NCBI GenBank assembly: GCA_016201065.1
Contig: JACQDL010000027.1
Span: 68,641 to 132,640, forward strand
Origin: Actinomycetota bacterium
Lineage (GTDB): Bacteria > Actinomycetota > Actinomycetes > Mycobacteriales > JACQDL01
DNA: 64,000 bases
Direction of reading: 5' to 3'
Of this stretch, positions 2,788 through 51,690 are shown one piece after another; the stretch's first letter is position 1; each line of letters opens with the position of its first letter. The position numbers and the translations under genes were made by a program. The notes under the pieces were generated by a model. It was not told the origin of the DNA. It searched no databases and saw only the letters and a list, made by a program, of their open reading frames with translations.

Positions 2788-4184
2788 CGCTCCCCCGCTG
2801 CGGAGTGGCCGGCCGGTGCCCGGAGCCGGCCGGCGAACAGAACGCCAAGACCAGCGATGGCGGCCATGGTGAGGTCGACGGTCGTGATCGCCGCCGGCAG
2901 CGGGACGATCCGCGCCAGCAGCACACCACCGAGCCCGATCGTGACGGCGCTGGCGAGCATGTCGCTGATCTGTAGCGCCGCGCTGTGGCTGCCCCGCTCC
3001 GCGGCCGGGGACAGCCGCATCAGCAGCACCGACACGCTCGGCACCGCCAGCCCCATGCCCGTACCGGAGATCGCCCATGCCGGAACGGCGAGCCAACCGG
3101 GTGAGCCGGCGAAGGCGATCGACACCAGACCGGTCGCGCCGGCACCGATCAGCGCGCAGCCGGCCCGGACCAGCGCGTGCCGTGGCGCGTGCGGCCGCCG
3201 CCCCTGGAACCACGAGCCGGCCGACCAGCCGAGCGCGCCGACGGTGAGTGGCACCCCGGCGGCGGTCGGGCTGTACCCGTGCAGCTGGGTCAACGTCAGC
3301 GGCATGAACGCCTCGACGCCGAAGAACGCGCCGGAGAGCAGCCCCCGGTAGCCGACCGTGGCCGGCAACCCGGAGCGCAACCGGACCGTGCCGGCCGGGA
3401 GTATCCGGCGTGCCGCCCACCACAACGTCACCAGCCCGGGCAGGGCAAGCACCGGCGCGGACCGGTGGCCGGGCTGGCCGGCGTACTGCACCGCGACCAG
3501 ACCGACCGCGACGAGCAGCGCGTACGGCGCCCGGCTGCCCCGGCCGGCGACCCCGACCCGACGCTCCGACCCGACCGGGTCGGAGCTGCCGAGCGTGGTG
3601 TGCCGGCGCAGCGCCCGCAGCACCAGCACCGCCCCAACGAGGACGAGCGGCACCAGGCCGAGGAACGCCAGCCGCCAGGTCAGGTGCTGGGTGACCAGAC
3701 CCGCCACGATCGGCCCGATCAGGGCGGGCAGCACCCACGCGGCCGAGACCACGGCGAAGACCCGCGGTCGCGTCGCGTCGTCGAAGACCTCGGCGATGAC
3801 CACGAACAGCGGGACGACGAGCAGCCCGACCCCCAGCCCCTGCACGGCCCGCGCGGCGACGAACACGGCCATCTGCCCGGTCACACCCGCACCCACCAGC
3901 CCGGCGCAGAACACCCCGAACCCGACCAGAAGCACCGGCCGCGGCCCGCGCCGGTCCGCCTGCTCACCGGCCAGCACCACCGCCAGCACGCTCGCCACCA
4001 TGAAGGCGGTGAACGGCCAGCTGTAGTAGCGCAGGCCGTGCAGCTCGCGGACCGCGGTCGGCATGGCGGTGGCCACCGCCATGCTCTCGAACGCGATCAG
4101 GGTGATCACTAGCACCACGCCGGCCGTGATCGGCCGGTAGGCCCGGGAGAGCAGGGACACCGGCTCGCCAGCGGGCCCGGTCAC
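2784..4184 (-). CDS. MFS transporter
   Basis: C-terminal 466 aa of ORF 2784..4673 is a run of hydrophobic helices with MFS-like loops ([14 protein letters not shown]). GTG start at 4184 chosen. The stop overlaps the downstream gene start by 4 nt. Confidence 0.7.
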
Positions 4185-7286: not shown

Positions 7287-8387
7287 TCAGGTCGGGTTCG
7301 AGGAGATCAGATCAAGGTAGCGCTCGTGGAAGTCGCTGGCTGCGGGTACCGAGGTGCGGAACCGGGTCAGCGCTTGATCAACATCGGCGAGTTGGTCGGC
7401 GACTCTCATGGAACTGACCTGGGACACCGCCAACAGGAGAGCGTCGGTAGCAGTCGTGGCGGCGGATTCGATGTCGTTCCGTTGGATTCGGGCGCGTGCG
7501 ATACGGATGAGGACGGTGGCGCGGTCACGGATGTAGGTGGGATCGATGGTCTCCAGAACGGCCTGGAAGGTCGCCTCGGCGCGGGTGGGATCACCCAGTG
7601 TCAGCCAGCAGATCCCGGCGTGGATCTGCTCATCGGCCCGCCCGAAGTAGTAGATCCACTCCGGCGCGTCGGGGTCGTCGGCGTCCAGCAGTGTTTCGGC
7701 ACGGTGCAGGGCACGACCACTGGTCGTGCTGTCGCCAAGCTTGGCCGCGGCGACGGCCTGCCGGGCGACCAGCATGGCGCGCACGGTGGATGACCCGCCG
7801 GCACCAAGGCCTTCTTCGGCGGTCTGAGCCAGAGTCAGGCCGTCGTGGGGTCGATCAAGGTTGTAGGACTGTAGCGCCATGCCCGCCAGGATGTTCGCGC
7901 CCATCGCCGTGTCTGCGGCGCTGTGTGCGGCGTGCAGGGCCGCGACCCACTGGCGCTGGGCGAAGCCGTGCATGCTTGAGTCGTAGGCCAACCAGCCCAG
8001 GAAATGCCCAAGGTTCGCGGCGGTGGCGTGCAGGCGCCTGCCGACCTCGCTGGTGTAGCTGCCGCCGAGCAGGTCGGTGACCCGTTGGTAGCGCTGGCGG
8101 ACGATCGGCAGGAGATCGGTGCCACCGATCTCGTCGTCGAGGTGCCGCAGCTTCAGCACCATGGCATCAAGCTGCTCGACCAACGCGAGATCAACTCGGG
8201 TCGTGCCGTCGTGTACCGAGGCGGAGACCGGGTCAGCCGTCACCCAGTCACGGGCGAGACCGATGAGGTCATCCCCGGCACGGAGGCCGGCGAGTGGGTG
8301 CTGGTCCATCTGGCCATCCTTCAACGCTGTGAATGCTGTGACTGTGCCGCCCACATCCCACGGCGGGGATTGCCACTCGGTATCCAT
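7287..8387 (-). CDS. Hypothetical helical (TPR-like) protein, resembles the C-terminal part of actinobacterial XRE-TPR regulators but has no HTH
   Basis: ORF 7287..8522 trimmed to the ATG at 8387 (MDTEWQSPPW...). All-helical repeat-like sequence (WIYYFGRADEQIHAGICWLTLGDPTRAEATFQAVLE). Family call is weak. Confidence 0.45.
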   Translation of the reverse strand: MDTEWQSPPWDVGGTVTAFTALKDGQMDQHPLAGLRAGDDLIGLARDWVTADPVSASVHDGTTRVDLALVEQLDAMVLKLRHLDDEIGGTDLLPIVRQRYQRVTDLLGGSYTSEVGRRLHATAANLGHFLGWLAYDSSMHGFAQRQWVAALHAAHSAADTAMGANILAGMALQSYNLDRPHDGLTLAQTAEEGLGAGGSSTVRAMLVARQAVAAAKLGDSTTSGRALHRAETLLDADDPDAPEWIYYFGRADEQIHAGICWLTLGDPTRAEATFQAVLETIDPTYIRDRATVLIRIARARIQRNDIESAATTATDALLLAVSQVSSMRVADQLADVDQALTRFRTSVPAASDFHERYLDLISSNPT

Positions 8388-8777
8388 GACCTGACCCCAC
8401 GCTGATCCGCAAATGGGGAGCGCCCTGCGCCCACGCCCCGACACCCACACCAACGAAGACGGCGGCGCCACCCATGACATTGCAACTGACCAGACGGTCG
8501 GCGCATCCGGCGAGGTGTGCACGGCTCACGTACACGATCGGTAGCTCCTCGCGCCCGGATGCCAGGGGGCTTCGGCTCGCGGGTGAACCCGAGGCGGTGG
8601 GCGTGGCTGACGTGCCCACGCCCACCGCAACGGGGATACGCGGCCACCCGCGACTGCCAGGCGGCGGTTAGCCGCGCACCGAGTGCGCGCCCACCCAAGA
8701 CCGCCACTGGCAGAAAGGGCGGCGGGGCCGGAGTACTCGACCGGACCCGCCGTTCCTGTTGAAGCCCGAGCTCGGGG

Positions 8778-9794
8778 CTAGACCCCGCGGCCGACTTCCG
8801 GGCGTACCGCCCAGCCGTCATCGTCGACGGCGAACGACGGCTTGAGCATTGCGAGGTCCGGCTCACCGGTCCTGCGCCACTGCGCGAGCAGTTCAGCGAG
8901 GCTGTTCTTCGTGTCATCGGTTCCGGCCACGAGCAGGCCACCGTTGCTGAGGCTGACGGCGAGACTGTCGGCCGTCGCCAGCCCGATTCCCCAGCCGCGT
9001 GGGCCGCCAGCGCTGGCGACGTCGTCGGTTGACGCCAGGACGAAGGCGGTGAACGCCCGCCACCGATCCGCCCCTTGGTCGAAGAAGCCCTGTTCCGGCT
9101 CGGCTTCGACCAACTCGTCCAACAGCTTCTGCGCAACCTCCGCAGGCTGTTCGTGGAGCCGGTGACCACTGACCCACCACGGCTGGCCGTCCGCCTGGCG
9201 ATCGACCGCGTCTACGTAACGAATCGGCATGCCGAAGTCGATGATCACCTCGGGAGCCATTTCGATGAAGCTGCCGGGGTGCAGCTCGCCGCCGTGGATC
9301 TGGCCGTCGAGCGTGCAGCGGACGACAGCGTTGGTTCCGGCGACATCGGCGATCTTCACCGGAGTGACCAACACTGCTCCCGGTTTGGCCTGCTTGACCC
9401 ATGCGCTGGGCACGACGTGCGGAGTTACCCAGCCAACGATCCGGTCGTAGGGTCCCGATGCCTGCCAGCCCTCAAAGCCGTCCGCAGCGTGCACCTCGAC
9501 GTTGGTATGGCCGGCGCGATCATGCAGAACGCGAGCACGCTCAACCAGGCTCGGGTCAATATCGACGGACACCACATGGCCGTCAGCGCCGACGATGCGG
9601 GAGAGCAGCGCACCGGAGTACCCCGATCCGGTGCCGACTTCCAGCACCCGCATGCCTGGCTCAAGGTCGAGCATCTGGAGCATTCCATGAATCATGGTGT
9701 CGGTGGTGACCTGCGGGATCAGGTAACCGTCCGCTGTGCTCGTCCATGCGTCGTAGTCGACAGCGGCGGCAGCCGCTGCGATGAGGTCCGTCAC
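8778..9794 (-). CDS. Protein-L-isoaspartate O-methyltransferase (PIMT) homologue, lasso-peptide tailoring enzyme
   Basis: SAM motif VLEVGTGSGYSGALL plus VVSVDID, as in Pcm enzymes. About 120 aa of extra C-terminal sequence. GTG start overlaps the B2 stop by 4 nt (GTGA). Confidence 0.85.
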   Translation of the reverse strand: MTDLIAAAAAAVDYDAWTSTADGYLIPQVTTDTMIHGMLQMLDLEPGMRVLEVGTGSGYSGALLSRIVGADGHVVSVDIDPSLVERARVLHDRAGHTNVEVHAADGFEGWQASGPYDRIVGWVTPHVVPSAWVKQAKPGAVLVTPVKIADVAGTNAVVRCTLDGQIHGGELHPGSFIEMAPEVIIDFGMPIRYVDAVDRQADGQPWWVSGHRLHEQPAEVAQKLLDELVEAEPEQGFFDQGADRWRAFTAFVLASTDDVASAGGPRGWGIGLATADSLAVSLSNGGLLVAGTDDTKNSLAELLAQWRRTGEPDLAMLKPSFAVDDDGWAVRPEVGRGV

Positions 9795-10240
9795 GTCATG
9801 CTCCGGGTTCGAGTCGGTGGTGCCGAGATGGTGATCAATGGTTGGTAGGTCGCCGCGGAAGGGGGTTCACCGATCGGGTTGTTGAAGGCGTCGGCAAGCC
9901 AGGCGTGCGCGGCCAACGGCGGTGTGCGAACACCCATGCGCCAGGTGACGCCCTGGCGGCGAGCGGCCAGCAGGACCACAGCGGTCAAGGATCGCTCCAT
10001 ACATGCCAGGCGGACCGGCACCCACCTGGCGGCATCGTCGACGGCTTCGAGTACGCCTTCGACCTCCTCCAGCGATGCGGTTCGGCGGGTCGTTCCTGCC
10101 AGCCAGCGGGCTGCCGACATCACGTGATCGAACCTGAGCGCGACCAGTGCGAGTCGGACCGTCGACGCCACGCACACGGCGGAAACGGTCGCAAGCCGGG
10201 GCGGTCGAAGGCGCTGCGGGAACGCCATCGGCGTACTCAT
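9791..10240 (-). CDS. Lasso peptide biosynthesis B2 protein (transglutaminase-like leader peptidase)
   Basis: VRLACMERSLTAVVLLAARRQGVTWRMGV...AAHAWLAD carries the Cys and His of the B2 protease. 4-nt overlaps on both sides. Confidence 0.85.
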   Translation of the reverse strand: MSTPMAFPQRLRPPRLATVSAVCVASTVRLALVALRFDHVMSAARWLAGTTRRTASLEEVEGVLEAVDDAARWVPVRLACMERSLTAVVLLAARRQGVTWRMGVRTPPLAAHAWLADAFNNPIGEPPSAATYQPLITISAPPTRTRSMT

Positions 10241-10506
10241 GGCTCTGCCCTCACGAGGCCGGTCCGCTGCAAGTCCGCGAGCAGCACGTCGAGATCGGCG
10301 CGTACACGCGCCGATCCGGTGCCGTACCGCTCGGCCACCGACCTGCTGGCCGCGTCTGGCTGTCCGTCATGTTCCAGAAGTGCCGTCCACATTGCCGCTG
10401 CGGTTGGGTTGCATCGGTACAGCCTGCCGGACTTCTCACGAAGGAGCACCAGGCCGCCGTCGTCCATCGGTGTCGAGCTGACCCCGTCATCAGGCCGGTA
10501 GCGCAC
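10237..10506 (-). CDS. Lasso peptide biosynthesis B1 protein (PqqD-family RiPP recognition element)
   Basis: GLVLLREKSGRLYRCNPTAAAMWTALLE...VRADLDVLLADLQRTGLV is a PqqD/RRE pattern. GTG at 10506 chosen (17-nt overlap with C). The alternative ATG at 10467 would remove the first beta strand. Confidence 0.8.
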   Translation of the reverse strand: MRYRPDDGVSSTPMDDGGLVLLREKSGRLYRCNPTAAAMWTALLEHDGQPDAASRSVAERYGTGSARVRADLDVLLADLQRTGLVRAEP

Positions 10507-12343
10507 GCTGGCCTCCCTCCGCGGCAACTGCTGGAGGGTCCGATCGGGTGGAACGCAACCACAGCTCGAAGCCGAGCACGGTGTCGAACGCACCGAGCCG
10601 GATCGGCACCCCTGACGCGCCCTTGTGCAGCTCTGCGCGCACGGCGTCGGCGTCGATCAGCCCGAGCTCGGCCAGCCGCGCCGACCGCAGCACATCGTCG
10701 ATGGCGTCGACATTGTGGCGCAGTCCCCGGTAGGACAAGGCCGTGTAGTCGCCCTTGGTCCGTCGGTCAACAATGCTCGCGGGCACCAGTTCGTTGACGG
10801 CGTGCCACAACAGCGGCTTTGCCCGATCAGGCGACGTGCGTACCGATGCCGGGACAGACCAGCACGCCTTGACCACACCGTCGTCCAGATACGGCGACTG
10901 CAAGCTGACACCGCATTCCGCAGCCAGCGCGACGTCTGCACGCAGGCCCCGCGCGAAGGCGTTGAGCGACAGCCAGGCGGTCGAGTCCCCGATACCGAAC
11001 TGACCCGGCACGACAGGTGCGTCGTGCTCGGCGGCATGGCCTCGGAGGCGGTCGGCGGCGAGCTGCCGCGCGTCAGGGGTCGCCCACGCGCTGACGCCTC
11101 CCACATCGAGCCACGACACGAACCTCGCCCAGCCGGTGGGCGCTGGCCCACCGAGGACAAGCCGGTCGGCCGCTTTGGTCAGCGCGTCGCGGTACGGCGT
11201 CCTGCGGACCTCGGTAGCTGCCCGGATCAGCGCTTGCGGCGACTGGTGTCGCAGACGCGCCCAGCCGTTCGCGTGCCGCCACAGCGCCCCGACCGTTCGC
11301 GGCCTGGCCAGGTCGGCCAGATAGGAAGGCACGGCCAACAACACGCCGTCGCCCCCGTCCCCGCCGAAGTGGAGGTCCGAACCTCCCGCTGCGAGACGCC
11401 GACGCCACCACCGTACCCAGGCCGTGGCGACCAGGCAGTCAGCAGGCTCATCGACCTGGGGCACGTTCTCCAGTTCCGAGTACGGCAGAACGTCCTCGGG
11501 TATCTCCATCTGCTCATGGATCAGGCCAGGCACCACGGCTGCGACGTGAACGGCCACTGCCGCATCGTCTACGCCGTCCACGGTGAGCGTGACAGCTCGG
11601 ATTGGCCCGCGAGCGTCCAACGAGGCGAGTGCAGCCACGGCCGACGAGTCGAGGCCGCCACTGAGATCCGCGGTGGGCGACTCGACTGCTGTCACGCGGT
11701 ACCCGACCGCTTGCCGCAATGCGACCCGCAACGACTCGGCACCCTCGGCCAAGCCGGCCTGCGGCTTACCAAGGTCAAGCCAGCGGGCCGGAATCGCTTC
11801 GCCCGCACGCGTGATGCGCAGCAGCCAGCCAGGCCGCGCAGCATGGACACCTCGCCACGCCGAACCTGCCCACCACACATCGGCGGACGACGGCAGGAGC
11901 ATTCGAGCCGCCAACCATTTCCGGTCCACGGACCTGCCCACAAGATCTGCTAGTTGCCTGGAGCTCGAGCCGACCACGACTTCGCCGCCGAGGGCGGCGT
12001 AGAAGATCGGGCACTGACCAGCGAGGTCGCCAGCCACCAATACGTCATCTGATCGCACCGCGATCACCACACGGCTGCCGTCGATCGCTGTCAACGCCGC
12101 CGTGTCTCCACGGGCGAGGCGTTGGGCGACCTCGGGCAACTCGGCTTGAGGCGTTGTGCAGCAGCCGACGACGAGCAGTTGGCAACCGGGCACATCGGCC
12201 CGGCGAACGTGCTGCACAGGCCCAGACTGGCCGTGCCACAACCGGAATTCTCCGGCCGTGACAACGGGCCAGTCCGGTTTCACACCTAGCTCATGATCGT
12301 GTGGCGCTCTGCGGTCGACTCTCTTGGCCAACCACCATGTCAT
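10490..12343 (-). CDS. Lasso peptide cyclase C (asparagine synthetase-like)
   Basis: 617 aa. ATP-pyrophosphatase motif DLSGGLDSSAVAAL. Starts 9 nt after the precursor stop. Confidence 0.9.
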   Translation of the reverse strand: MTWWLAKRVDRRAPHDHELGVKPDWPVVTAGEFRLWHGQSGPVQHVRRADVPGCQLLVVGCCTTPQAELPEVAQRLARGDTAALTAIDGSRVVIAVRSDDVLVAGDLAGQCPIFYAALGGEVVVGSSSRQLADLVGRSVDRKWLAARMLLPSSADVWWAGSAWRGVHAARPGWLLRITRAGEAIPARWLDLGKPQAGLAEGAESLRVALRQAVGYRVTAVESPTADLSGGLDSSAVAALASLDARGPIRAVTLTVDGVDDAAVAVHVAAVVPGLIHEQMEIPEDVLPYSELENVPQVDEPADCLVATAWVRWWRRRLAAGGSDLHFGGDGGDGVLLAVPSYLADLARPRTVGALWRHANGWARLRHQSPQALIRAATEVRRTPYRDALTKAADRLVLGGPAPTGWARFVSWLDVGGVSAWATPDARQLAADRLRGHAAEHDAPVVPGQFGIGDSTAWLSLNAFARGLRADVALAAECGVSLQSPYLDDGVVKACWSVPASVRTSPDRAKPLLWHAVNELVPASIVDRRTKGDYTALSYRGLRHNVDAIDDVLRSARLAELGLIDADAVRAELHKGASGVPIRLGAFDTVLGFELWLRSTRSDPPAVAAEGGQRALPA

Positions 12344-12352
12344 GAGAAGTGA

Positions 12353-12499
12353 TCACCAGTACTTCGCGGTCTTCATGTCCGCCGTGTCATCAGCGGCCGT
12401 ACCGCGCGTCAGCGCAACGACGTCGCCCATCTCGTCAAGCCTCGGCGGCTCGTAGCGAACGGGAGACTCCAGAACCTCGGGCACTTCAGTTGCGGCCAT
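12353..12499 (-). CDS. Lasso peptide precursor (48 aa): leader MAATEVPEVLESPVRYEPPRLDEMGDVVALTR, core GTAADDTADMKTAKYW
   Basis: ATG at 12499 preceded by GGAAGGGG. The leader matches YxxPxLx3Gx5Tx exactly (Y-17, P-14, L-12, G-8, T-2). The core starts with Gly and has Asp at position 9. Confidence 0.8.
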   Translation of the reverse strand: MAATEVPEVLESPVRYEPPRLDEMGDVVALTRGTAADDTADMKTAKYW

Positions 12500-12750
12500 G
12501 TTGGCCCCTTCCTGCACGCCCACCCGTCGACCATCCTGCCGACCGGTGACGTCGAGCACAAGATCGGGCGCCAAGAGTAGCGGGAAGGGCAGGATGCGAC
12601 GCGAGGAACTGACGGGTTGTACGTCATCTGGGGGTGCGTGCAGGTGCCACAGCCGCGGATCTTGGAACTGGGTGTCGACACACAGATGATCAAGAATGGT
12701 GGCAGGTCAGTGGGGGCGGGGGTTCCGTTCGGGTGGGTAGCCTCCTGCAC

Positions 12751-13281
12751 ATGGAAGACGACCACGTCCTGACGATCCACCGGCAATGGCAGGCGCAACG
12801 TCCCGACCTCGACCCGTCGCCGATCCTGGTGATCGGCCGCCTGACCCGCACGGCGCGCATCATCGAGCAGGAGCTGGACCGCTGCTTCACCGAGCTGGGT
12901 CTTCAGTCATGGGAGTTCGACGTGCTGGCGGCGTTGCGTCGGGCCGGTGCGCCGTACGAGCTCACCCCTACCCGGCTCGGCCAGACCTGCATGATCAGTT
13001 CGAGTGCCATGACCAACCGGCTCAACCAGCTCGAACGGGTCGAGCTGGTGCGGCGGCGGCACGGCGGTGACGGTGACCGTCGCTCGGTCTACGTCGGTCT
13101 CACCGACCGCGGGCTGTCCCTGGTGGACCGGGCCGTCGCGGTCCACCTCACGAACGAGGAGGCGCTGCTGAGCCAGCTGTCCGCGGAGGAGCGGGCGGAC
13201 CTCGGTGCCCTGCTGAACAAGCTGGCCAGCTCGGCCCGGTTCAGCCGGTCGGGTGCAGACCGCACCGTCCACAGCGGATAG
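12751..13281 (+). CDS. MarR family transcriptional regulator
   Basis: ORF 12634..13281 trimmed to the ATG at 12751 (MEDDHVLTIHRQW...). Winged-helix region WEFDVLAALRRAG...LTPTRLGQTCMISSSAMTNRLNQLERVELVRR. Divergent from the lasso precursor. Confidence 0.85.
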   Translation: MEDDHVLTIHRQWQAQRPDLDPSPILVIGRLTRTARIIEQELDRCFTELGLQSWEFDVLAALRRAGAPYELTPTRLGQTCMISSSAMTNRLNQLERVELVRRRHGGDGDRRSVYVGLTDRGLSLVDRAVAVHLTNEEALLSQLSAEERADLGALLNKLASSARFSRSGADRTVHSG

Positions 13282-14211
13282 CGCGCCGGCACCACGACGG
13301 CGCAGGTTCTGGGTCATCAGGACGGCACCCACCACCACAACCGCGCCGACGCCCTGCCGCCGGGTCAGAGCCTGGTCGAGCACCGCGTAGCCCAGCACCG
13401 TCGCGACCAGTGGGCTGAGGAATCCCAGGAACGACGAGGTGACCGCGGGCAACCGCTGCAACCCGCGGACCCACAACGAGTAGCCCAGGATCGAACCGAC
13501 CAAGATCAGGTAGCCGTAGCCACCGAGGTTGCGCCAGCTCAGCCGGGTTGGCACTCCCTCGGCGAGGAGCAACGCGGGCAACAGCACCAGTCCCCCGGCG
13601 GTCAGCTGCCACCCGGCGAACGGCAGCAGCCCCACCCCAGGTGGCGGGCCCCAGCGCTTGGTCAACACGATGCCGATGGCCAACGAGGTCGCCGCCGCGA
13701 GTGCCGCGAGCACGCCGATCCCGTCGAGGGTCGCATCCGCCCGCACCACCAGGAGGCCGACACCGGTGAACCCGACCAGACCGGCCAGTCCCTCGCGCCG
13801 GCTCGCCCGCTCGCCCAGCACGACCACCGCGAAGCCCATGACGAGGATCGGCTGAATCGACACGATCAGTGCCGCCAGACCGCCCGGCAACCGGTAGGCC
13901 GCCACGAACAGCAGGAATGAGAAGGCACCGATGTTGACCACGCCCAGCACCAGCACCCGCCAGATCCAGACCCCGCGTGGGACCACCCGACCCAGGCCGA
14001 GCAGCAACAGTCCCGCCGGCAGGGCGCGGGCCGCCGCCGCGAGCATCGGCCGACCCGGCGGGAGGAGCTCGGTGGTGACCAGGTAGGTGCTCCCCCACAC
14101 TGCGGGCGCCACCGCAGCGAGCACGGTGTCCCTGAGCACGGTGTCCCTGAGCACGGTGTCCCTGAGCACGGTGTCCCTGAGCACGCTGTCCCTGAACGCG
14201 GTGTCCCTCAT
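12907..14211 (-). CDS. EamA/DMT family transporter; both boundaries uncertain
   Basis: Ten hydrophobic segments typical of DMT (AVWGSTYLVTTELLPPGRP..., two EamA halves). Candidate starts are GTG 14235, ATG 14211 and GTG 14124. The frame has no stop until 12907, giving a roughly 130-aa tail antisense to marR. Confidence 0.6.
   Translation of the reverse strand: MRDTAFRDSVLRDTVLRDTVLRDTVLRDTVLAAVAPAVWGSTYLVTTELLPPGRPMLAAAARALPAGLLLLGLGRVVPRGVWIWRVLVLGVVNIGAFSFLLFVAAYRLPGGLAALIVSIQPILVMGFAVVVLGERASRREGLAGLVGFTGVGLLVVRADATLDGIGVLAALAAATSLAIGIVLTKRWGPPPGVGLLPFAGWQLTAGGLVLLPALLLAEGVPTRLSWRNLGGYGYLILVGSILGYSLWVRGLQRLPAVTSSFLGFLSPLVATVLGYAVLDQALTRRQGVGAVVVVGAVLMTQNLRRRGAGALSAVDGAVCTRPAEPGRAGQLVQQGTEVRPLLRGQLAQQRLLVREVDRDGPVHQGQPAVGETDVDRATVTVTAVPPPHQLDPFELVEPVGHGTRTDHAGLAEPGRGELVRRTGPTQRRQHVELP
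14121..14210. repeat. 15-bp tandem repeat, 6 copies (4 perfect GCACGGTGTCCCTGA plus 2 degenerate)
   Basis: Read directly: 14121-35, 14136-50, 14151-65 and 14166-80 are identical; 14181-95 and 14196-210 are variants. It encodes (RDTVL)n in the EamA frame. Confidence 0.95.
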
Positions 14212-14327
14212 CGCGGATCGATCCGGCCATGACACACCACGGCGAAGGCCCCCATCGGCTCCGATCGCGATACGCGATCACGCCCCGCAATCTACCCACA
14301 TCGAATCAATCGACGTCAAGTATTTCG

Positions 14328-15269
14328 ATGTGGAACCACTTGCGGCGACGGTCCGCGCGACATGTGACGGCTGTCACTCGGCCGGCCGTACCAGCCCGAG
14401 GCGGGGCTCGGTCAGGACCCGGGTACGGTACGGCCGGCGGATCCAGGGACCCCGGGGAGCGAGCCATCAGCACCCACTCCGCAGCGGGCGAGCACCGGCT
14501 GACCCTCACCGGTGAACGGACGCTGCCCGGCATCGAGGTCGAGAACTACTGGTTCCGGCGGCACGAGGCCGCCTACCAGGCGCTGCTCCCGCGCTGCCGG
14601 GGGCAGCTGGTGCTGGAAGCCGGCTGCGGCGAGGGGTACGGCGCGGCAGCCCTCGCCACCGTCGCCCGGCGGGTGGTGGCGGTGGACTACGACGGGCAGA
14701 CCACCACCCACGTCGCCACGACGTACCCGCAGCTGCACACCGTCCGCGGGAACCTCGCCGCGTTGCCGTTCCACACCGGACAGTTCGACGTGGTGGCCAG
14801 CCTCCAGGTGCTCGAACACCTCTGGGACCAGGCGGGGTTCCTCCGCGAGTGTGGACGGGTGCTGCGCCCCGACGGGTCGCTGCTGCTCAGCACACCCAAC
14901 CGGCTCACCTTCTCGCCGGACCCGAATGCCCCACGCAACCCGTTCCACAGCCGCGAGCTCGACGCCGTCGAGCTCGATGAGCTGCTGACCGGCGCCGGCT
15001 TCCGGCTCACCGGTGGTGCCGGGGCGGGGCTGACCGGAGTGCACCACGGACCACGACTGGCGGCCATGGACGCCCGGCACGGCGGGTCGCTGGTCGCCGC
15101 GCAGCTCGCCCGGCCATGGCAGGAATGGTCGGCGGGGCTGCGCGCCGACGTCGCGGCCGTGCGGGCCGGCGACTTCGTGCTCACCGGGACCGAGCTCGAC
15201 GGCAGCCTCGACCTGGTCGCGGTCGCCCGGTGGCCCGACGACCGATCCCGCAGCCCGGCGGCGGGATGA
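14328..15269 (+). CDS. Class I SAM-dependent methyltransferase (Rv3030-like, MGLP-type locus)
   Basis: VLEAGCGEGYGAAAL SAM motif and FDVVASLQVLEHL. ATG at 14328 follows an AT-rich divergent intergenic stretch. The stop overlaps the next gene start (ATGA). Confidence 0.75.
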   Translation: MWNHLRRRSARHVTAVTRPAVPARGGARSGPGYGTAGGSRDPGERAISTHSAAGEHRLTLTGERTLPGIEVENYWFRRHEAAYQALLPRCRGQLVLEAGCGEGYGAAALATVARRVVAVDYDGQTTTHVATTYPQLHTVRGNLAALPFHTGQFDVVASLQVLEHLWDQAGFLRECGRVLRPDGSLLLSTPNRLTFSPDPNAPRNPFHSRELDAVELDELLTGAGFRLTGGAGAGLTGVHHGPRLAAMDARHGGSLVAAQLARPWQEWSAGLRADVAAVRAGDFVLTGTELDGSLDLVAVARWPDDRSRSPAAG

Positions 15270-16780
15270 GGATGACCCGCGACCGGCCGGCCGGCACGTT
15301 CTGCCTGGTGTTGCACACCCACCTGCCGTGGCTGGCGCACGGCGGCACCTGGCCGGTCGGCGAGGAATGGCTGCACCAGGCGTTCACCCAGTCCTGGCGG
15401 CGGGTGGTGGTCACCCTGGAGGCGCTCGCCGCCGAGGGGCGCCGGGAGCTGGTCACCCTCGGCGTGACCCCGGTCGCCGCGGCGATGCTGGACGACCCGT
15501 ACTGCCTGGCGGAGCTGCACACCTGGGCGGGGAACTGGCAGCTCCGGGCCGAGGGGCTGGCGGCCCGGCCCGAGCCGCACCTGCGGGACCTGGCGGCAGC
15601 CGAGTTCCGGGCCGCCACCGCCTGCCTGGCCGACCTGGAGTCCCGGTGGCTGACCGGGGGCGGATCAGCGGTGTTCCGCCGGCTCGTCGACGACGGTGTG
15701 GTCGAGCTGCTCGGCGGCCCCGCCACCCACCCGTTCCTGCCGCTGCTGGACGAGCGGGTGGCCCGGCTCCAGCTCGCCACCGGGCTGGACGACGCCCGGC
15801 TCCGGTTCGGCCGCGGCACGGCCGGCATCTGGGCGCCGGAGTGCGGCTACCGGCCCGGCCTGGAACGGCTGTACGCCGACCAGGGTGTGCGCTGGTTCTG
15901 CGTCGACGGTCCGGCGCTGCGCGGTGACACCGCCCAGGCCCGCACGGTCGGCGACACCGACGTGGTGTGCTTCGGGCGTGACCTGGAGGTCAGCTACCGG
16001 GTGTGGTCGCCCCGGGCCGGCTACCCGGGCCGGGGCGAGTACCGCGACTTCCACACCTTCGACCACCAGTCCGGTTTCCGGCCGTCCCGGGTCACCTCCC
16101 GGCGGTTGCCGCCGGAGGCGAAACGGCCGTGGGACCCGGATCTGGCGGCCGCGGCGGTGCGCCGGGACGCCGCCGACTTCGTGGCCGTGGTACGCCGCCA
16201 GCTGGACGCACTGGCCGGGCGGCTGGGTCGGCCCGGGCTGGTGGTGGCCGCCTACGACACCGAGCTGTTCGGTCACTGGTGGCACGAGGGACCGGCCTGG
16301 CTGGCCGCCGTGCTGCGCGCGCTGCCGGAGGCCGGCGTGCGGGTCACCACGCTGGCCGGCGCGGTGGCGGCCGGGCACGTCGGCGGGCCGGTCAGGCTGC
16401 CGGCCGGCTCGTGGGGCACCGGCAAGGACTGGCGGGTCTGGGACAACCCTGGGGTGGCGGAGCTGGTCGCCACCGCGGAGCGGGTGCACGCCCGCCTGAT
16501 CACGGTGGTCGACGCCCACCGACCCGGTCGTGGCCGGGACGGCACGCTCGACCAGCTCGCCCGGGAGGCGTTCCTCGCCACGGCCAGCGACTGGACGTTC
16601 ATGGTCAGCAAGGACACCGCGGCGCAGTACGCCCGCGACCGGGCGGATGGGCACGCCGCCCGCTTCCACCGGTTGGCCGACCTGATCACGGCGGAGGACC
16701 GGCCGGGCGCCTCGGCCCTCGCCGGCGAGCTGCGCCACCTCGACGGTCCGTTCGGCCACCTCGACGCGCGCCGCCTGTAG
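15266..16780 (+). CDS. Glycoside hydrolase family 57 alpha-glucan branching-type protein (Rv3031-like)
   Basis: ORF 15116..16780 trimmed to the ATG at 15266. FCLVLHTHLPWLAHGGTWPVGEEWLHQA and WAPECGYRPG are GH57 hallmarks. Confidence 0.85.
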   Translation: MRMTRDRPAGTFCLVLHTHLPWLAHGGTWPVGEEWLHQAFTQSWRRVVVTLEALAAEGRRELVTLGVTPVAAAMLDDPYCLAELHTWAGNWQLRAEGLAARPEPHLRDLAAAEFRAATACLADLESRWLTGGGSAVFRRLVDDGVVELLGGPATHPFLPLLDERVARLQLATGLDDARLRFGRGTAGIWAPECGYRPGLERLYADQGVRWFCVDGPALRGDTAQARTVGDTDVVCFGRDLEVSYRVWSPRAGYPGRGEYRDFHTFDHQSGFRPSRVTSRRLPPEAKRPWDPDLAAAAVRRDAADFVAVVRRQLDALAGRLGRPGLVVAAYDTELFGHWWHEGPAWLAAVLRALPEAGVRVTTLAGAVAAGHVGGPVRLPAGSWGTGKDWRVWDNPGVAELVATAERVHARLITVVDAHRPGRGRDGTLDQLAREAFLATASDWTFMVSKDTAAQYARDRADGHAARFHRLADLITAEDRPGASALAGELRHLDGPFGHLDARRL

Positions 16781-16800
16781 CCTCCGCCGCCTGTAGCCTC
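16769..16800. repeat. 16-bp tandem duplication (CGCCGCCTGTAGCCTC x2) spanning the GH57 stop codon
   Basis: Read directly. The first copy contains the functional TAG (16778-16780). The second copy repeats it out of use. Confidence 0.9.
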
Positions 16801-16948
16801 CGCCGGCTGGAGGTTCTTCGGGCTGCCCGCCCGGTGCGCGGATGCGACGGGACGGGGTGTCTGCGGCAAGGTTGACCACACCGGCACAATCGAGGGTGGC
16901 CCGTCGCACCGGAGCTCCGCTCCAGACCATGATCATGTGAGGTTGGAC

Positions 16949-17599
16949 ATGCGGCTCAGCACGTCCGATGTCCGGAACATCACGTTCCGCAAGCCACCGC
17001 TGGGCAAGCGCGGGTACGACGAAGAGGACGTGGACGCGTTCCTCCGGCTTGTGATGGCCGTGCTGGACAGCGCGCCAGGCGCCCGGCTCACCGCCGACGA
17101 CGTGCGGCAGGTCAAGTTCCGCAAGCCGCCGCTGGGCCGGCGCGGCTACGACGAGGACGAGGTGGACTCGTTCCTGGACCTCATCACCACGGAGCTGCGC
17201 CACCGGGCCACCGAGGTGGCCGTGCCCCGCCCCCGATCCGGGGACCGGTCGGCCCTGTCCGGCAGTGAGCTGGTCCGGACGATCTGGCGGCGGGCCCAGG
17301 AGCGGGACTGGGACGGTGTCGCGGTCCTGCTCAGCCCCGACTTCACCGTGGAGTGGCCCGGCACCCAGGAGCGGTTCACCGGTCGGGACGCCTGGCTCGC
17401 CGTCAACCGGGCGCACGCCGACGGCTGGCAGCTGACCGTCGACACGATCATCGGCACCGGTGACGAGGTCGCCTCCCGGGTGCTGGTCATGTCGGACCAG
17501 GGTGCCTGGCACACCCTCTCGTTCTGGCGGCTGCGCGGCGGCGTCGCCACCTACCTCAGCGAGTACTACGTCGCGGAGTGGGGAGTCCAGCCCCGGTAG
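16949..17599 (+). CDS. DivIVA-motif (x2) protein fused to an NTF2/SnoaL-like C-terminal domain
   Basis: Two copies of the DivIVA N-terminal motif: [29 protein letters not shown] and [29 protein letters not shown]. The C-terminus ([26 protein letters not shown]...) is SnoaL-like. Confidence 0.7.
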
Positions 17600-17652
17600 C
17601 TGTGGGCGCCGGGCTCCGCCGACGGTGACCGGCTCTGGCAGCATGGTGCGCC

Positions 17653-18915
17653 GTGCGGGTGATGATGCTGTCGTGGGAGTACCCACCGGTCCTGGTGGGC
17701 GGGCTTGGTCGGCACGTGCACGCGCTGGCCGAGGCACTGGCACGCGCCGGCCACGAGGTCACGGTGATCACGCGGTACGCCGACGGCGCGGCCCAGGACG
17801 AGGTGGTGGCCGGTGTCCGGGTGATCCGGGTGCCGGAGGACCCGCCGACGTTCCCCTTCGGTACCGAGCTGCTGGCCTGGACCATGGCGTTCAACCACGC
17901 GCTGACCCGGGCCGCGCTGCGGGTCGCCGAGCAGTCACCGCCGGATGTGGTGCACGCCCACGACTGGCTGGTCACCCACGCGGCCACCACCCTCAAGCAC
18001 CACCTCCGGGTGCCGCTCGTGGCGACCGTGCACGCGACCGAGGCCGGCCGGCACCAGGGCTGGCTGCCCGAGCCGATGAACCGGACGATCCACTCGGTGG
18101 AATGGTGGCTGACCTACCAGGCGCGGCGGGTGATCGTGTGTTCGGAGTACATGCGCTGGGAGGTCACCCGGCTGTTCGACCTGCCGCCGGACTCCGTCGA
18201 CGTGATCCCGAACGGCGTGGCCCTGGGCCGCTGGGCGGGGCAGCAGGACCGGGTCGCCGAGGTCCGCTCCCGCTTCGCCGGCAGCGGGCCACTGATCGTC
18301 TTCGCCGGCCGGCTGGTCTACGAGAAGGGGGTGCACGATCTGCTGACAGCGATGCCCCGGCTACGTCGGCGACACCCCGGCATCCGGCTGGTGGTCGCTG
18401 GCGTGGGGCCGCGGGACGAGGAGTTGCGGGCCCAGGCGAGAGCCCTGCGGCTGGGCCGGTCGGTGCACTTCACGGGCTTCGTGGCCGAGGAGGAGCTGGC
18501 TGGGCTCGCTGCCGCGGCGGACTGCGCCGTCGTCCCGTCGATCTACGAACCCTTCGGCATGGTCGCCCTGGAGGCTGCGGCGGCCGGAACCCCGCTGGTC
18601 GTGGCCGACGTGGGTGGCCTCCGGGAGCTGGTGGATCACGGCATCACCGGGTTACGGTTCACCCCCTCTGACGTGGCCGGACTGGCGGCCGCCGTCGATG
18701 CGCTGCTGTCGGACGAGGTGCTGGCCCGGCGAATGTCCCGGGCGGCCCGGACCGAGGTCACCCACCGGTACGCGTGGCCCCGGATCGCGGAGCGGACCTG
18801 TGGCACCTTCGCCAGGGCGATCCGGGAGGAGCTCGCGCTGCTCGCCGAGCGGCCGGCGGTGCCACCGCTGGCCCCGGTGATGCGGGAGGGAAACCTGCTG
18901 GCGACCGGCGACTGA
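17653..18915 (+). CDS. GT4 family alpha-1,4-glucosyltransferase (Rv3032-like glycogen-synthase-type)
   Basis: MLSWEYPPVLVGGLGRHVHALAEALARAGHEVTVIT... and the C-terminal VPSIYEPFGMVALEAAAAGTPLV (EX7E region). Confidence 0.85.
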   Translation: MRVMMLSWEYPPVLVGGLGRHVHALAEALARAGHEVTVITRYADGAAQDEVVAGVRVIRVPEDPPTFPFGTELLAWTMAFNHALTRAALRVAEQSPPDVVHAHDWLVTHAATTLKHHLRVPLVATVHATEAGRHQGWLPEPMNRTIHSVEWWLTYQARRVIVCSEYMRWEVTRLFDLPPDSVDVIPNGVALGRWAGQQDRVAEVRSRFAGSGPLIVFAGRLVYEKGVHDLLTAMPRLRRRHPGIRLVVAGVGPRDEELRAQARALRLGRSVHFTGFVAEEELAGLAAAADCAVVPSIYEPFGMVALEAAAAGTPLVVADVGGLRELVDHGITGLRFTPSDVAGLAAAVDALLSDEVLARRMSRAARTEVTHRYAWPRIAERTCGTFARAIREELALLAERPAVPPLAPVMREGNLLATGD

Positions 18916-18972
18916 CCGGACGGCAGGGTCCCGCGGTCGCCGGATCCGGCCGGGCTGCGCGACACTGTTGCG

Positions 18973-19947
18973 ATGCTTGAGGTGGATTTGCTCATCGTCG
19001 GCGCCGGTCCCGCCGGACTGTACGGCGCCTACTACGCCGGCTTTCGTCGCATGTCCACGGCCGTCGTGGACGCGCTGCCGGAGCCGGGTGGCCAGGTGAC
19101 GGCGCTCTACCCCGAGAAGACGATCTTCGACGTGGCGGGCTTCCCGGCGATCAGGGGCCGGGACCTGGTCGGCAACCTCCTCGACCAGGCCGCCCCGTTC
19201 CACCCGCGGTACATCCTCGGCGAGGTGGCCAGCGAGCTGACCACCCGGCCGGACGGCTCCCTCGTGGTCCGCACCGACGCCGGGACCACCGTCCACACCC
19301 AGGCGGTGATCATCACCGGCGGGATCGGTGAGTTTCGACCGCGGCCGTTGCCGGACGGCGACGCCTGGCTGGGGCGTGGGCTCTCCTACTTCGTGCCGAG
19401 GCTGGCTGAGCACACCGACCTCGACGTGCTCATCGTCGGCGGCGGTGACAGCGCCTTCGACTGGGCACTCCACCTGCAGCCGCTCGCCCGGTCGGTGACG
19501 GTGGTCCATCGCCGCGACCGGTTCCGGGCCCACGAGCACACCGTCAGCCAGGTCAGCGACCTCGGCGTGCCGATCCTCACCTTCACCGAGGTCGCCGACC
19601 TGCGTGGCGCGGACCGGCTGGAGCAGGTGCTGCTCCGGCACAGCAGGACCGGCGAGGAACGGCTGCTGCCGGCCCAGTCGGTGATCGCCGCCCTCGGGTT
19701 CACCGCCGACCTCGGCCCGCTCGCCGGCTGGGGGCTCACCGTCAGCAAACGACATGTGCCGGTGGACCGCCGGATGGCCACCAACCTGCCCCGCGTGTAC
19801 GCGGCGGGTGACATCGCGGACTACGCCGGCAAGGTGCGGCTGATCTCGGTCGGCTTCGGCGAGGTGGCCCTCGCGGTGAACAACGCGGCGGTGGCCATCA
19901 ACCCCGACACCCACCTCTTCCCTGGCCACTCCTCCGATCCACACTGA
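18973..19947 (+). CDS. Thioredoxin-reductase-like ferredoxin-NADP+ reductase (YumC type)
   Basis: DLLIVGAGPAGLYGAYYAG FAD motif, second dinucleotide motif VLIVGGGDSAFDWAL, and the C-terminal YAAGDIA. Confidence 0.85.
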   Translation: MLEVDLLIVGAGPAGLYGAYYAGFRRMSTAVVDALPEPGGQVTALYPEKTIFDVAGFPAIRGRDLVGNLLDQAAPFHPRYILGEVASELTTRPDGSLVVRTDAGTTVHTQAVIITGGIGEFRPRPLPDGDAWLGRGLSYFVPRLAEHTDLDVLIVGGGDSAFDWALHLQPLARSVTVVHRRDRFRAHEHTVSQVSDLGVPILTFTEVADLRGADRLEQVLLRHSRTGEERLLPAQSVIAALGFTADLGPLAGWGLTVSKRHVPVDRRMATNLPRVYAAGDIADYAGKVRLISVGFGEVALAVNNAAVAINPDTHLFPGHSSDPH

Positions 19948-23653: not shown

Positions 23654-24463
23654 TCAGCCTGCGGCCGCGCGGGCGAAGTACCGCCCGCCGACCCGGTCCA
23701 CCCGCAGCGGGAGGCCGAACGCCGCGGAGAGGCTCTCCCCGGTGAGCACGTCGCCGAGCAGGCCGGCGGCCACCACCTCGCCCTCCCGCAGCAGCAGGGC
23801 ATGGGTGAACCCGGGCGGGATCTCCTCGACATGGTGGGTCACCAGGACGAGGGTCGGCGCGTCCGGGTCGGCCGCCAGGGCGGCCAGATGCCCGACCAGG
23901 GCTTCCCGGCCGCCGAGGTCCAGGCCGGCGGCCGGCTCGTCCAGCAGCATCAGCTCCGGGTCGGCCATCAGGGCGCGGGCGATCTGCACCCGCTTCCGCT
24001 CGCCCTCCGACAGGGTGCCGAAGCGACGGTCGGCCAGGTCCAGCACACCGAAGCGGCGCAGCAGCATCCGCGCCCGGGCCCGGTCGGTCTCCTGGTACGG
24101 CTCCCGCCACCGGCCCAGCACGGCGTACCCGGCCGACATCACCAGGTCGAGCACGCATTCTCCGGGCGGGATGTGGTTGGCGACCGCGGCGCTGGCGAAC
24201 CCGACGCGTGGCCGCAGGTCGAACACGTTGACCCCGCCGATCCGCTCACCCAGCACATGCGCCTCACCGGCCGTCGGATGCAGCTGCGCTCCGGCGATCT
24301 GCAGCAGCGTCGTCTTCCCGGCGCCGTTCGGGCCGAGGACGACCCACCGCTCGTCCAGCTCGACCGACCAGTCGATGTCGGTGAGCAGGCGCGCATCGCC
24401 CCGGCGCACACCGACCCCGGCGAGCTGGATGACCACGTCCTCGTGCACTCCCACGGGTGCCAT
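23654..24463 (-). CDS. ABC transporter ATP-binding protein (Rv3041c-like)
   Basis: Walker A GPNGAGKTT, signature LSEGERKRV, Walker B LMLLDEP. ATG at 24463. Confidence 0.85.
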   Translation of the reverse strand: MAPVGVHEDVVIQLAGVGVRRGDARLLTDIDWSVELDERWVVLGPNGAGKTTLLQIAGAQLHPTAGEAHVLGERIGGVNVFDLRPRVGFASAAVANHIPPGECVLDLVMSAGYAVLGRWREPYQETDRARARMLLRRFGVLDLADRRFGTLSEGERKRVQIARALMADPELMLLDEPAAGLDLGGREALVGHLAALAADPDAPTLVLVTHHVEEIPPGFTHALLLREGEVVAAGLLGDVLTGESLSAAFGLPLRVDRVGGRYFARAAAG

Positions 24464-24556
24464 CCAACCGCACCGGTGCCGCCGATGGGTCACAGGGACC
24501 CGCGGCGATACGGTACGGCCGGACCACGCCCATGCGGGGTCCGACAGGGAGGGCGA

Positions 24557-25513
24557 ATGGGATCCGATGCGGTGCTTGAGGTCACCGGGCTGCGCAAGGC
24601 GTTCCGGGGCATCCGGGGCGGCCGCCGGGTCGCCGTCGACGGGCTCGACATGACCGTCCCGGCCGGCGTGGTGCACGGCTTCCTCGGGCCGAACGGCTCG
24701 GGCAAGACCACGACCCTACGGATCGTGCTCGGCCTGGTCCGGGCCGACGCCGGTGCGGCGCGGATGCTCGGCCGGCCGGTGCCGGCGGCGCTGCCCGCGG
24801 TGCTCCGGCAGGTCGGCGCGATCGTGGAGCAGCCGCAGTTCTTCCCGGCGTTCTCCGGGCGGCGCAACCTGCGGTCGCTGGCCGGCATCGCCGGACTCCC
24901 GCCGGGCCGGGTCGAGGAGGTGCTGGAGCTGGTCGGGCTGCGGGACCGGGCGAAGGACCGGTACAAGACCTACTCCCTCGGCATGAAGCAGCGGCTGGCG
25001 ATCGGCGCCGCGCTGCTGAGGTCACCGCGGCTGCTCATCCTCGACGAGCCCATGAACGGCCTGGACCCGGCCGGCATCCACGAGGTCCGGGAGACGATGC
25101 GCAGGCTCACCCGGGAGGGTGCCAGCGTGCTGCTCTCCAGCCACATCCTCGCCGAGGTGGAACAGGTCTGCGACTCGGTGTCGATCATCAGCCGGGGCCG
25201 TCACGTCCGCTCCGGATCGGTCAGCGAGGTGCTCGCGGGCCGGCCCAGCGGTGAGGTGCTGATCCGGATCGCGGCGCCGGAGGAGGGGATCCAGATCCTC
25301 ACCGAGGCCGGCTTCGGCGCGCGTCGGGACGGCACGCAGGTGCGGGTCAGCGGTGTCACCGACCCGGCGCTGGTCACCGAGCGGCTCGCGCAACGCGGCC
25401 ACTACCTCGCCGAGCTGACGCCGGTGCGGGCCGACCTGGAGAGCGTCTTCCTGGAGCTGACCGGCCCCACCGAGGCTCGACCGGAGCCGGAGCGCAAGGA
25501 GGGCACACAGTGA
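24557..25513 (+). CDS. ABC-2 type exporter ATP-binding protein
   Basis: Real part of the 894-aa artefact ORF. ATG at 24557 (MGSDAVLEVTGLRKAF...). GPNGSGKTT, YSLGMKQRL, LLILDEP. Confidence 0.9.
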   Translation: MGSDAVLEVTGLRKAFRGIRGGRRVAVDGLDMTVPAGVVHGFLGPNGSGKTTTLRIVLGLVRADAGAARMLGRPVPAALPAVLRQVGAIVEQPQFFPAFSGRRNLRSLAGIAGLPPGRVEEVLELVGLRDRAKDRYKTYSLGMKQRLAIGAALLRSPRLLILDEPMNGLDPAGIHEVRETMRRLTREGASVLLSSHILAEVEQVCDSVSIISRGRHVRSGSVSEVLAGRPSGEVLIRIAAPEEGIQILTEAGFGARRDGTQVRVSGVTDPALVTERLAQRGHYLAELTPVRADLESVFLELTGPTEARPEPERKEGTQ

Positions 25514-51688: not shown

Positions 51689-51690
51689 GC

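Follow-up and report, generated by a model that had tools for sequence, protein, structure and literature searches.

The DNA described here, which we call the window throughout, is a stretch of 64,000 nt from an Actinomycetota bacterium (contig JACQDL010000027.1, assembly GCA_016201065.1). At 8778-12499 its minus strand carries the five open reading frames (ORFs) of a lasso peptide operon: a precursor gene (A), a cyclase gene (C), genes for a recognition element (B1) and a leader peptidase (B2) and, last, a gene for an O-methyltransferase, M, that is homologous to protein L-isoaspartyl O-methyltransferases (PIMTs). Coordinates (Table 1) are those of the window unless another locus is named, and a script verified the position, frame, start codon, and stop codon of each ORF; the same check found 0 internal stops in the five ORFs.

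Genes and junctions of the operon

The precursor stop codon is separated from the start of C by 9 nt (TGA tcacttctc ATG), C and B1 overlap by 17 nt, and the B1/B2 and B2/M junctions are 4-nt overlaps (ATGA and GTGA, respectively). The 17-nt C/B1 overlap is also called in four homologous clusters (L083-L086) and the 4-nt B2/M overlap in at least two (L084 and L086), which indicates that this arrangement is conserved rather than accidental. Coupled translation is suggested by the small distance between A and C and by stop and start codons that overlap at the later junctions. An earlier note on this DNA had proposed an A-C-B1-B2 lasso operon that closes with a PIMT-type O-methyltransferase, with these same junctions and with diagnostic motifs in each enzyme; the profile matches, which lie far above chance level, and the intact ORFs bear out the gene assignments, the junctions proved exact, and all of the motifs were located.

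The three lasso enzymes carry the expected signatures. C matches Asn_synthase (PF00733, E 3e-35) and the macrolactam cyclase model NF033561 (364 bits, cutoff 300), and it contains the ATP-pyrophosphatase motif SGGLDSS at residues 228-234 (11642-11662); its identity to C of L083-L086 is 50-76%. B1 matches PqqD (PF05402, E 4e-11). B2 matches Transglut_core3 (PF13471, E 5e-20) and the lasso B2 model NF033537 (81.7 bits, cutoff 33), with Cys81 in ACMERS (residues 79-84) and His112 in AHAWL (residues 111-115). A cyclase with the ATP-pyrophosphatase motif, a PqqD-like B1, and a Cys-protease B2 are the gene content of a class II split-B lasso cluster.

The precursor ATG is preceded by a ribosome-binding site, AGGAAGGGG, and further upstream by a block, conserved before the precursor in the window, L083, and L085, that contains the putative promoter. 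The conserved block argues against a longer, TTG-started precursor ORF, and its TTGTGC and CAGGAT elements form a plausible actinobacterial promoter at the level of pattern. At the other end of the operon, the 390-nt gap between M and the next gene downstream, which belongs to the NsdA family, contains two G+C-rich hairpins. The one nearer M is a 12-nt inverted repeat, 92% complementary, with a folding energy of -34.3 kcal/mol for 76 nt (z -2.4), and the other reaches -47 kcal/mol for 76 nt (z -3.2), a value that was equalled by 0 of 200 shuffles. These hairpins past the M stop suggest that the operon may end there.

Table 1. Coordinates of the operon, its predicted signals and product, neighboring genes, and regulator genes at related loci
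Feature	Locus	Coordinates	Strand	Details
Precursor gene A	Window	12353-12499	-	ATG to TGA, 48 aa
Leader (32 aa)	Window	12404-12499	-	Y-17, P-14, L-12 (YEPPRL), G-8, Thr-2
Core peptide (16 aa), GTAADDTADMKTAKYW	Window	12356-12403	-	Predicted G1-D9 isopeptide ring and 7-residue loop/tail
D6-T7-A8-D9 codons	Window	12377-12388	-	Predicted: D6 methylation/aspartimide site, T7 amide nucleophile, D9 ring
C, lasso cyclase (Asn-synthetase-like)	Window	10490-12343	-	ATG, 617 aa
B1, PqqD-like RiPP (peptide made on the ribosome and modified after translation) recognition element	Window	10237-10506	-	GTG, 89 aa
B2, transglutaminase-fold leader peptidase (Cys protease)	Window	9791-10240	-	ATG, 149 aa
M, PIMT-homologous O-methyltransferase	Window	8778-9794	-	GTG, 338 aa
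WXXXGXP motif of M	Window	8859-8879	-	W306-R-R-T-G310-E-P312; alignment of 30 homologues
Putative operon promoter	Window	12533-12561	-	-35 TTGTGC (12561-12556), 17-nt spacer, -10 CAGGAT (12538-12533)
G+C-rich hairpin, possible operon terminator	Window	8720-8752	-	26 nt past M stop; then CCCUUUCU
Second hairpin, between M and NsdA-family gene	Window	8588-8634	-	Perfect 13-bp stem
NsdA-family tetratricopeptide repeat (TPR)-like regulator gene	Window	7287-8387	-	366 aa from ATG; open frame to 8522
MarR-family regulator	Window	12751-13281	+	PF12802, E 1e-9; ATG at 12751, 251 nt from precursor ATG
EamA-family transporter ORF	Window	12907-14235	-	PF00892, E 3e-32, two stretches; third-codon-position G+C 0.84
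NsdA-family copy	L083	10009-11289
NsdA-family copy	L084	8835-10193
NsdA-family copy	L091	2352-3983
NsdA-family copy	L002	1632-2927	-
HTH_31-TPR copy	L085	9377-10582
HTH_31-TPR copy	L086	2899-4122	-
HTH_31-TPR copy	L089	6751-7956
HTH_31-TPR copy	L090	9038-10237

Precursor, methyltransferase and predicted product

The 48-aa precursor consists of the leader MAATEVPEVLESPVRYEPPRLDEMGDVVALTR followed by the core GTAADDTADMKTAKYW. It scores 27.6 bits against the NCBIfam model lasso_leader_L3 (NF033521, cutoff 19), and NCBI annotates its 48-aa orthologues in Actinokineospora and Sciscionella as lasso leader peptides. In an alignment of ten precursors, Y16, P19, L21, G25, and T31 are invariant, as is DTAD at core positions 6-9 (the negative leader positions in Table 1 follow our own numbering). 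Thr at -2 together with G1 and D9 places the precursor with those of class II split-B lasso peptides, and G1 with D(T/S)AD at 6-9 is the core signature of the group-1 lassimiditides. Among core positions 7-9, D9 is the sole acidic residue and therefore the sole candidate for ring closure. A profile search with the ten precursors returned 82 small proteins, 55 of which contain T-x-G-x4-D[T/S]AD, with 40 distinct cores. The exact core is shared by six sequence clusters whose leaders differ, among them one from a Sciscionella metagenome-assembled genome (MAG), and it recurs in other Pseudonocardiaceae-like MAGs and metagenome contigs, so the peptide is not unique to this genome; it is not present in the pamtide supplement. 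We note that eight of the 82 matches (P0166, P0169, P0172, P0178, P0173, P0180, P0183, and P0184) depart from the class rules: three, P0172 among them, have a core of the form GSATDNI(R/K)DA..., with N6 and without DTAD, one has GSAFDDTME..., with E9, and the four others have V-L in place of T-x before G1. The longest contig of P0172 is equal in length to that of P0008, an M homologue of 67% identity.

The top Pfam match of M is PCMT (PF01135, E 1e-32), which ends near residues 150-187 and includes the LEVGTGSGY motif at residues 51-59. The confident AlphaFold2 model (predicted local distance difference test score, pLDDT, 94.6; predicted template modeling score, pTM, 0.91) has a second alpha/beta domain at residues ~190-338, about 150 aa, so that M is a PIMT homologue with an extra C-terminal domain, as in the definition of the class, where this domain is given as ~110-130 aa. 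All top fold matches are PIMTs, and the best full-length one is the two-domain PIMT of T. maritima (1DL5), described by Lee et al. as the sole solved member of the RiPP-associated PIMT clade. A sequence search of the PDB with M returned no solved lasso-associated PIMT, and the matches span the N-terminal domain only. Within the C-terminal domain lies the WXXXGXP motif, in which, across the 30 aligned homologues, W306 never varies and conservation of P312 is at least 90%; this motif is reported to be specific to lasso-associated PIMT homologues and to be needed for the activity of TceM, the methyltransferase of the cellulonodin-2 cluster, whose C-terminal domain is also required (Cao et al. 2021). 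M falls far short of the models for graspetide and FxLD methyltransferases (TIGR04188, 124.6 versus 380 bits; TIGR04364, 116.8 versus 320 bits), and there are no ATP-grasp or LanB/C genes in its gene neighborhood.

Cao et al. (2021; bioRxiv 10.1101/2021.05.19.444711; JACS 143:11690) described PIMT-associated lasso clusters as having the order A-C-B1-B2-M and no ABC transporter. The cores of this class have G1, a strictly conserved D6, and DTAD at 6-9, the leaders have a conserved Y, P, G, and penultimate Thr, and the methyltransferases join a PIMT-like N-terminal part to a C-terminal domain and the WXXXGXP motif. According to the same study, the enzyme methylates D6 on the threaded lasso only, after which the T7 amide closes the aspartimide. 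The name lassimiditides comes from a 2026 review, in which cellulonodin-2 and lihuanodin are the only characterized members, and published genome-mining sets of group-1 lassimiditide clusters contain 48, 58, and 67 biosynthetic gene clusters. Because the window combines G1 and DTAD at 6-9 in the core with WXXXGXP in M, we assign the cluster to the aspartimide mode, and the A-C-B1-B2-M order and the missing ABC exporter, which are also published hallmarks, support this class. M lies inside the lasso operon with no linked ABC transporter, as in group 1. The earlier note, which mentioned neither G1 and DTAD nor WXXXGXP, had offered two modes for the PIMT homologue, aspartimide formation and esterification of the C-terminus; the first stands on these three features, and the second falls because neither StspM nor the lassomycin methyltransferase is a PIMT homologue. 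Taken together, we judge from the sequence that the cluster is very probably a complete operon, and probably a functional one, whose product is a group-1 lassimiditide; in this class II lasso peptide a ring Asp is most likely converted to an aspartimide by the dedicated methyltransferase M. It is a new, uncharacterized member of the known cellulonodin-2/lihuanodin class and no new kind of system, and we agree with the first description that the encoded peptide is not a characterized one.

The pathway that we propose takes its first step from the sequence and the later ones from homology to the cellulonodin-2 and lihuanodin systems. One transcript would start ~35 nt upstream of the precursor ATG and span A-C-B1-B2-M. 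B1 would bind the 48-aa precursor through the YxxPxL...G...T(-2) pattern of the leader, and B2 would cleave the Arg32/Gly33 bond. C would then adenylate the side chain of Asp9 and link it to the amine of Gly1, giving a 9-residue ring around the tail M10-W16, with the bulky K14/Y15/W16 region predicted to keep the thread locked. Only after lasso formation would M, with S-adenosylmethionine (SAM), methylate the side chain of Asp6; attack of the Thr7 backbone amide on the ester and loss of methanol would leave the ring aspartimide, a net change of -18 Da. The calculated monoisotopic masses are 1743.777 Da for the linear core, 1725.767 Da for the lassoed peptide, 1739.782 Da for its methyl ester, and 1707.756 Da for the aspartimide. 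The cluster encodes no exporter, which matches the known examples.

Related clusters and competing explanations

Identical copies of the whole operon are present in two other metagenome assemblies. M itself is 100% identical to a protein of a MAG labeled 'Actinobacteria bacterium' and 74% identical to its counterpart in Actinokineospora sp.; it also has relatives in Pseudonocardiaceae MAGs, Sciscionella, Lentzea, Actinosynnema, Amycolatopsis, and Kribbella. We compared eight fetched loci in which M is 43-74% identical (L083-L086 and L089-L092). At each of the eight, C, B1, and M are ordered as in the window and the precursor has Thr at -2, G1, and DTAD at 6-9; B2 was found at seven, through a gene call or through tblastn, and no B2 gene is called in L091. 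The locus of Actinokineospora sp. (L083) has identities of 76% for C, 73% for B1, 77% for B2, and 74% for M, and across the DTAD clusters L083-L086 the identity of M is 49-74%. The predicted group-1 clusters of Actinokineospora, Lentzea, Actinosynnema, Kribbella, and Sciscionella share the colinear five-gene cassette with the window and differ from it in leader sequences and genomic neighborhoods. The small reverse-strand ORFs that lie downstream of M in L083-L085 have no counterpart that we found in the window. At three loci of Lentzea and Actinosynnema, the HTH_31 regulator and the lasso-PIMT operon have a DNase_NucA_NucB gene next to them (L085, 10616-11236; L089, 7991-8614; L090, 3412-4035), and phage-like genes (DUF7340, DUF7341, and Phage_zn_bind_8) lie near the L084, L085, and L090 loci; these neighbors hint at a mobile context in those genomes.

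At lower similarity the methyltransferase is no longer a reliable marker of lasso clusters, and we rejected it as such: homologues of 40% identity or less are mostly not lasso-linked. No lasso genes lie near L001 (Nocardiopsis, 40%), L087 (Thermopolyspora, 38%), or L088 (Chlorogloeopsis, 34%), and L002 (Streptomyces endocoffeicus, 34%) has a lasso cyclase and a non-DTAD precursor (3003-3194, plus strand) that reads ...SVTVVTL followed by GPNTFDSSDESEYKDS. L002 probably belongs to what has been published as 'group 2', in which the modified Asp is not part of a DTAD context. When the genome collection was scanned with the M alignment, by way of the generic SAM-binding pattern V[LM]E[IV]GTGSG, most matches were ordinary PIMTs, and only L001 and L002 matched at full length.

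Of the characterized systems, the cellulonodin-2 cluster of Thermobifida cellulosilytica (tceACB1B2M) has the gene order A-C-B1-B2-M of the window and likewise has M last, a split B1/B2, no ABC transporter, and a nine-residue G1-D9 ring with DTAD at 6-9. The residues named in its mutagenesis, D5, D6, T7, A8, D9, T12, K14, and Y15, as well as G1, all match the core encoded in the window, and the sole mismatch among the named residues is position 16, which is Y in cellulonodin-2 and W here. TceM resembles M in its length of ~340 aa, its PIMT N-terminal domain, its C-terminal domain, and WXXXGXP. The two systems differ in the mass of the peptide that is lassoed only (1725.77 Da here versus 1702.68 Da), in the NsdA-family gene downstream of the operon in the window, and in the host, which is a Pseudonocardiaceae-like MAG here and a thermophilic member of the Nocardiopsaceae there. 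The lihuanodin cluster of Lihuaxuella thermophila (lihMACB1B2; nuclear magnetic resonance structure PDB 7LCW) also shares G1, DTAD at 6-9, a methyltransferase with WXXXGXP, and the absence of a transporter, and its D6 aspartimide, formed via the T7 amide, is the modification that we predict for the window. It differs in its firmicute host, in having M as the first gene, and in the ring residues K3, Y4, and S5 (taken from the nuclear Overhauser effect table).

Several points weigh against the assignment to the group-1 lassimiditides. We infer the production, threading, and methylation or aspartimide state of this peptide from sequence, and our judgment of its likeness to TceM, LihM, TceA, and LihA is drawn from published descriptions rather than from pairwise sequence comparison. 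B1 reaches 51.7 bits against a cutoff of 70 for the NCBIfam Streptomyces-type lasso PqqD model (NF033530), although it passes the Pfam PqqD model. The A-C gap is 9 nt, whereas tce has a 126-nt spacer with a hairpin, and the control of precursor:enzyme stoichiometry may differ accordingly. Finally, the promoter and the terminators are read from patterns, and a strict consensus scan for sigma-70 promoters and for terminators returned 0 sites.

The main uncertainty is which of the aspartimide, the methyl ester, or the hydrolyzed Asp would dominate in vivo, and whether the cluster is expressed. If M methylates Asp6, the stable species may be the methyl ester or the hydrolyzed Asp/isoAsp, with the aspartimide only transient. 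Expression of cellulonodin-2 yields 14% methyl ester, its K14F and T7-to-bulky variants accumulate the ester, aspartimides hydrolyze within hours in buffered or basic solution, and PIMT-modified lanthipeptides and some graspetides end as isoAsp. We nevertheless consider this outcome unlikely here: Thr7 is conserved, a Thr at n+1 favors the aspartimide and steers hydrolysis to Asp, from which re-modification is possible, and both characterized DTAD peptides accumulate the aspartimide in vivo. That this organism no longer has a working cluster, or keeps it silent, seems to us very improbable. In favor of this reading, RiPP clusters of actinobacteria are often cryptic in the laboratory, and a member of NsdA, a family of negative regulators, adjoins the operon. 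Against this stand the intact ORFs with their catalytic motifs, the identical operon copies in two independent metagenome assemblies, and the retention of an identical core in several organisms whose leaders diverge, a pattern that suggests that purifying selection acts on the core.

The other two alternatives concern the identity of M, and we give hardly any credence to either. In lassomycin and StspM-type systems, which like the window have a SAM-dependent O-methyltransferase in the lasso cluster, the enzyme esterifies the C-terminal carboxylate of the linear precursor before lasso formation; that shared location is the sole support for such a role here. StspM, which was modeled on mitomycin 7-O-methyltransferase (MitM) and has a His/Glu pair for catalysis, takes the linear precursor as its substrate, and Cao et al. 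(2021) reported no structural similarity of the StspM-type enzyme to TceM or LihM. In sequence and fold searches, M gave only weak, partial matches to MitM-type methyltransferases. Its family and fold matches are PIMTs, on which basis we rejected an StspM/LasF-type identity, and the core, with its DTAD ring motif, is not lassomycin-like. A PIMT identity could in turn mean that M is an ordinary protein-repair enzyme (Pcm) beside a plain lasso cluster, a reading that takes its support from PCMT being the top Pfam match. M stays below both canonical PIMT equivalog cutoffs, though (116.1 versus 188 bits, NF001453; 103.3 versus 159 bits, TIGR00080), and where a canonical Pcm is a single domain of ~210 aa in a surE-pcm context, M has the additional C-terminal domain with WXXXGXP and no adjacent surE. 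Its start codon overlaps the B2 stop, and its linkage to the lasso genes, B2 among them at seven of the loci, is kept in eight other loci. These scores, the additional domain, and the conservation of the link to the operon lead us to exclude a housekeeping Pcm.

A group-1 lassimiditide from this cluster would not surprise a specialist, and the cluster reveals no new type of system. The purposes proposed for the aspartimide include a rigidified ring, self-protection, and an electrophilic warhead. The compact 3.7-kb cluster is a good candidate, ready to be expressed, from a mesophilic Pseudonocardiaceae-like lineage, with a core that is common to several uncultured relatives and is very similar to cellulonodin-2 except for its Trp terminus. 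With this peptide, the substrate rules of the methyltransferase, namely, the D6/T7 context and the bulk of the tail, would rest on three cases rather than two.

The NsdA-family gene and the wider neighborhood

The gene downstream of M scores 289 bits against the NsdA-family model NF053720 (cutoff 75). It matches profile positions 76-432 only, and this copy seems to lack the N-terminal helix-turn-helix-like part. The earlier note had called it a TPR-like orphan, of which the TPR-like character holds; it is no orphan, as it belongs to the NsdA family and recurs beside related clusters. Genes above the NF053720 cutoff lie beside the PIMT-lasso operon at five of ten loci (the window, L083, L084, L091, and L002), and at four others (L085, L086, L089, and L090) the operon adjoins a remotely related HTH_31 protein of ~400 aa, whose C-terminal region aligns with the NsdA-type TPR-like region (hhalign probability 91%, E 9e-7). 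An NsdA-family or HTH_31-TPR regulator is thus found within ~2.5 kb at 9 of the 10 PIMT-lasso loci, a small and phylogenetically clustered sample, with varying positions and orientations. Identity among the regulators is only 22-27%, even for loci whose methyltransferases share 74%.

In the window, the NsdA-family gene is probably a cluster-associated regulator that is transcribed separately from the operon. That genes of this type are dedicated regulators co-inherited with PIMT-lasso operons is a tentative idea that we hold to be rather doubtful, a lead and not a result, and a literature search in a limited collection found no paper that links NsdA to lasso peptides. If true, it would connect lassimiditide production with the circuitry of NsdA type that governs development and antibiotic repression in actinomycetes and would offer a genetic handle to switch on such clusters and find their role. 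The recurrent NsdA-type neighbor suggests a route into the regulation and physiology of lassimiditides.

On the precursor side, a MarR gene reported to be divergent and ~250 bp away was found at 251 nt. Of the other fetched loci, 11 were searched by tblastn that have a full-length match to M, and no homologue of MarR was detected in them; the gene tables of L089-L092 contain no MarR-family Pfam match. The EamA family is likewise missing from the gene tables of L083-L086 and L089-L092. We rejected MarR and EamA as conserved parts of the cluster, both being absent from all related loci, and MarR is probably a neighbor rather than a component. The MarR and EamA ORFs converge with a 375-nt overlap, so that the last ~135 residues of the EamA ORF, which have no domain match, are antisense to MarR; in L081 and L082, from other assemblies, the gene caller retained EamA and omitted MarR. 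Within ~10 kb of the operon there is no ABC exporter or isopeptidase, as had been noted. The nearest ABC ATPase (23654-24715) is 11 kb away beside an enoyl-CoA hydratase, an unrelated context.

The operon was also said to lie in a patch of lower G+C content, which is real but modest. Its G+C is 67.6% versus 71.3% for the window, the 4.8th percentile of windows of the same length and ~1.5 standard deviations below the mean, and a hand count of 33 G/C in the 60 nt from 9661 (9661-9720) was exact. G+C at third codon positions (GC3) is 0.76-0.79 in the lasso genes versus 0.88-0.95 in the housekeeping neighbors. The low-GC3 patch (~7287-14277, about 7 kb, GC3 0.76-0.84) is wider than the operon and takes in the NsdA-like gene on one side of it and MarR and EamA on the other. 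It has no boundary marked by a tRNA, an integrase, or a repeat. A tRNA scan of the window gave 0 tRNAs, and hence no tRNA-linked island boundary, and an Rfam scan of the window gave 0 matches. The patch may be an old horizontal acquisition. A weaker addition to the idea of a co-inherited regulator is that all 7 kb may have come in together, in which case EamA would serve as the exporter that is otherwise missing.

The wider neighborhood is housekeeping in character, with the alpha and beta subunits of electron transfer flavoprotein, an esterase, and GH57/GT4 glucan genes. The alpha-glucan/glycogen genes (14981-19947 and 26455-31471), an ordinary housekeeping context, include a GH57 branching enzyme, a GT4 or GT5 synthase, an isoamylase-type CBM48 enzyme, and a glucan phosphorylase. 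The G+C content of the window is lowest near 50.2 kb, below the value of the operon. This stretch holds two long plus-strand open frames at 49532-51688 and 51523-52533, of 718 and 336 codons, which have no Pfam or NCBIfam match, and a Crp-family regulator gene (47808-48629) lies upstream of them.

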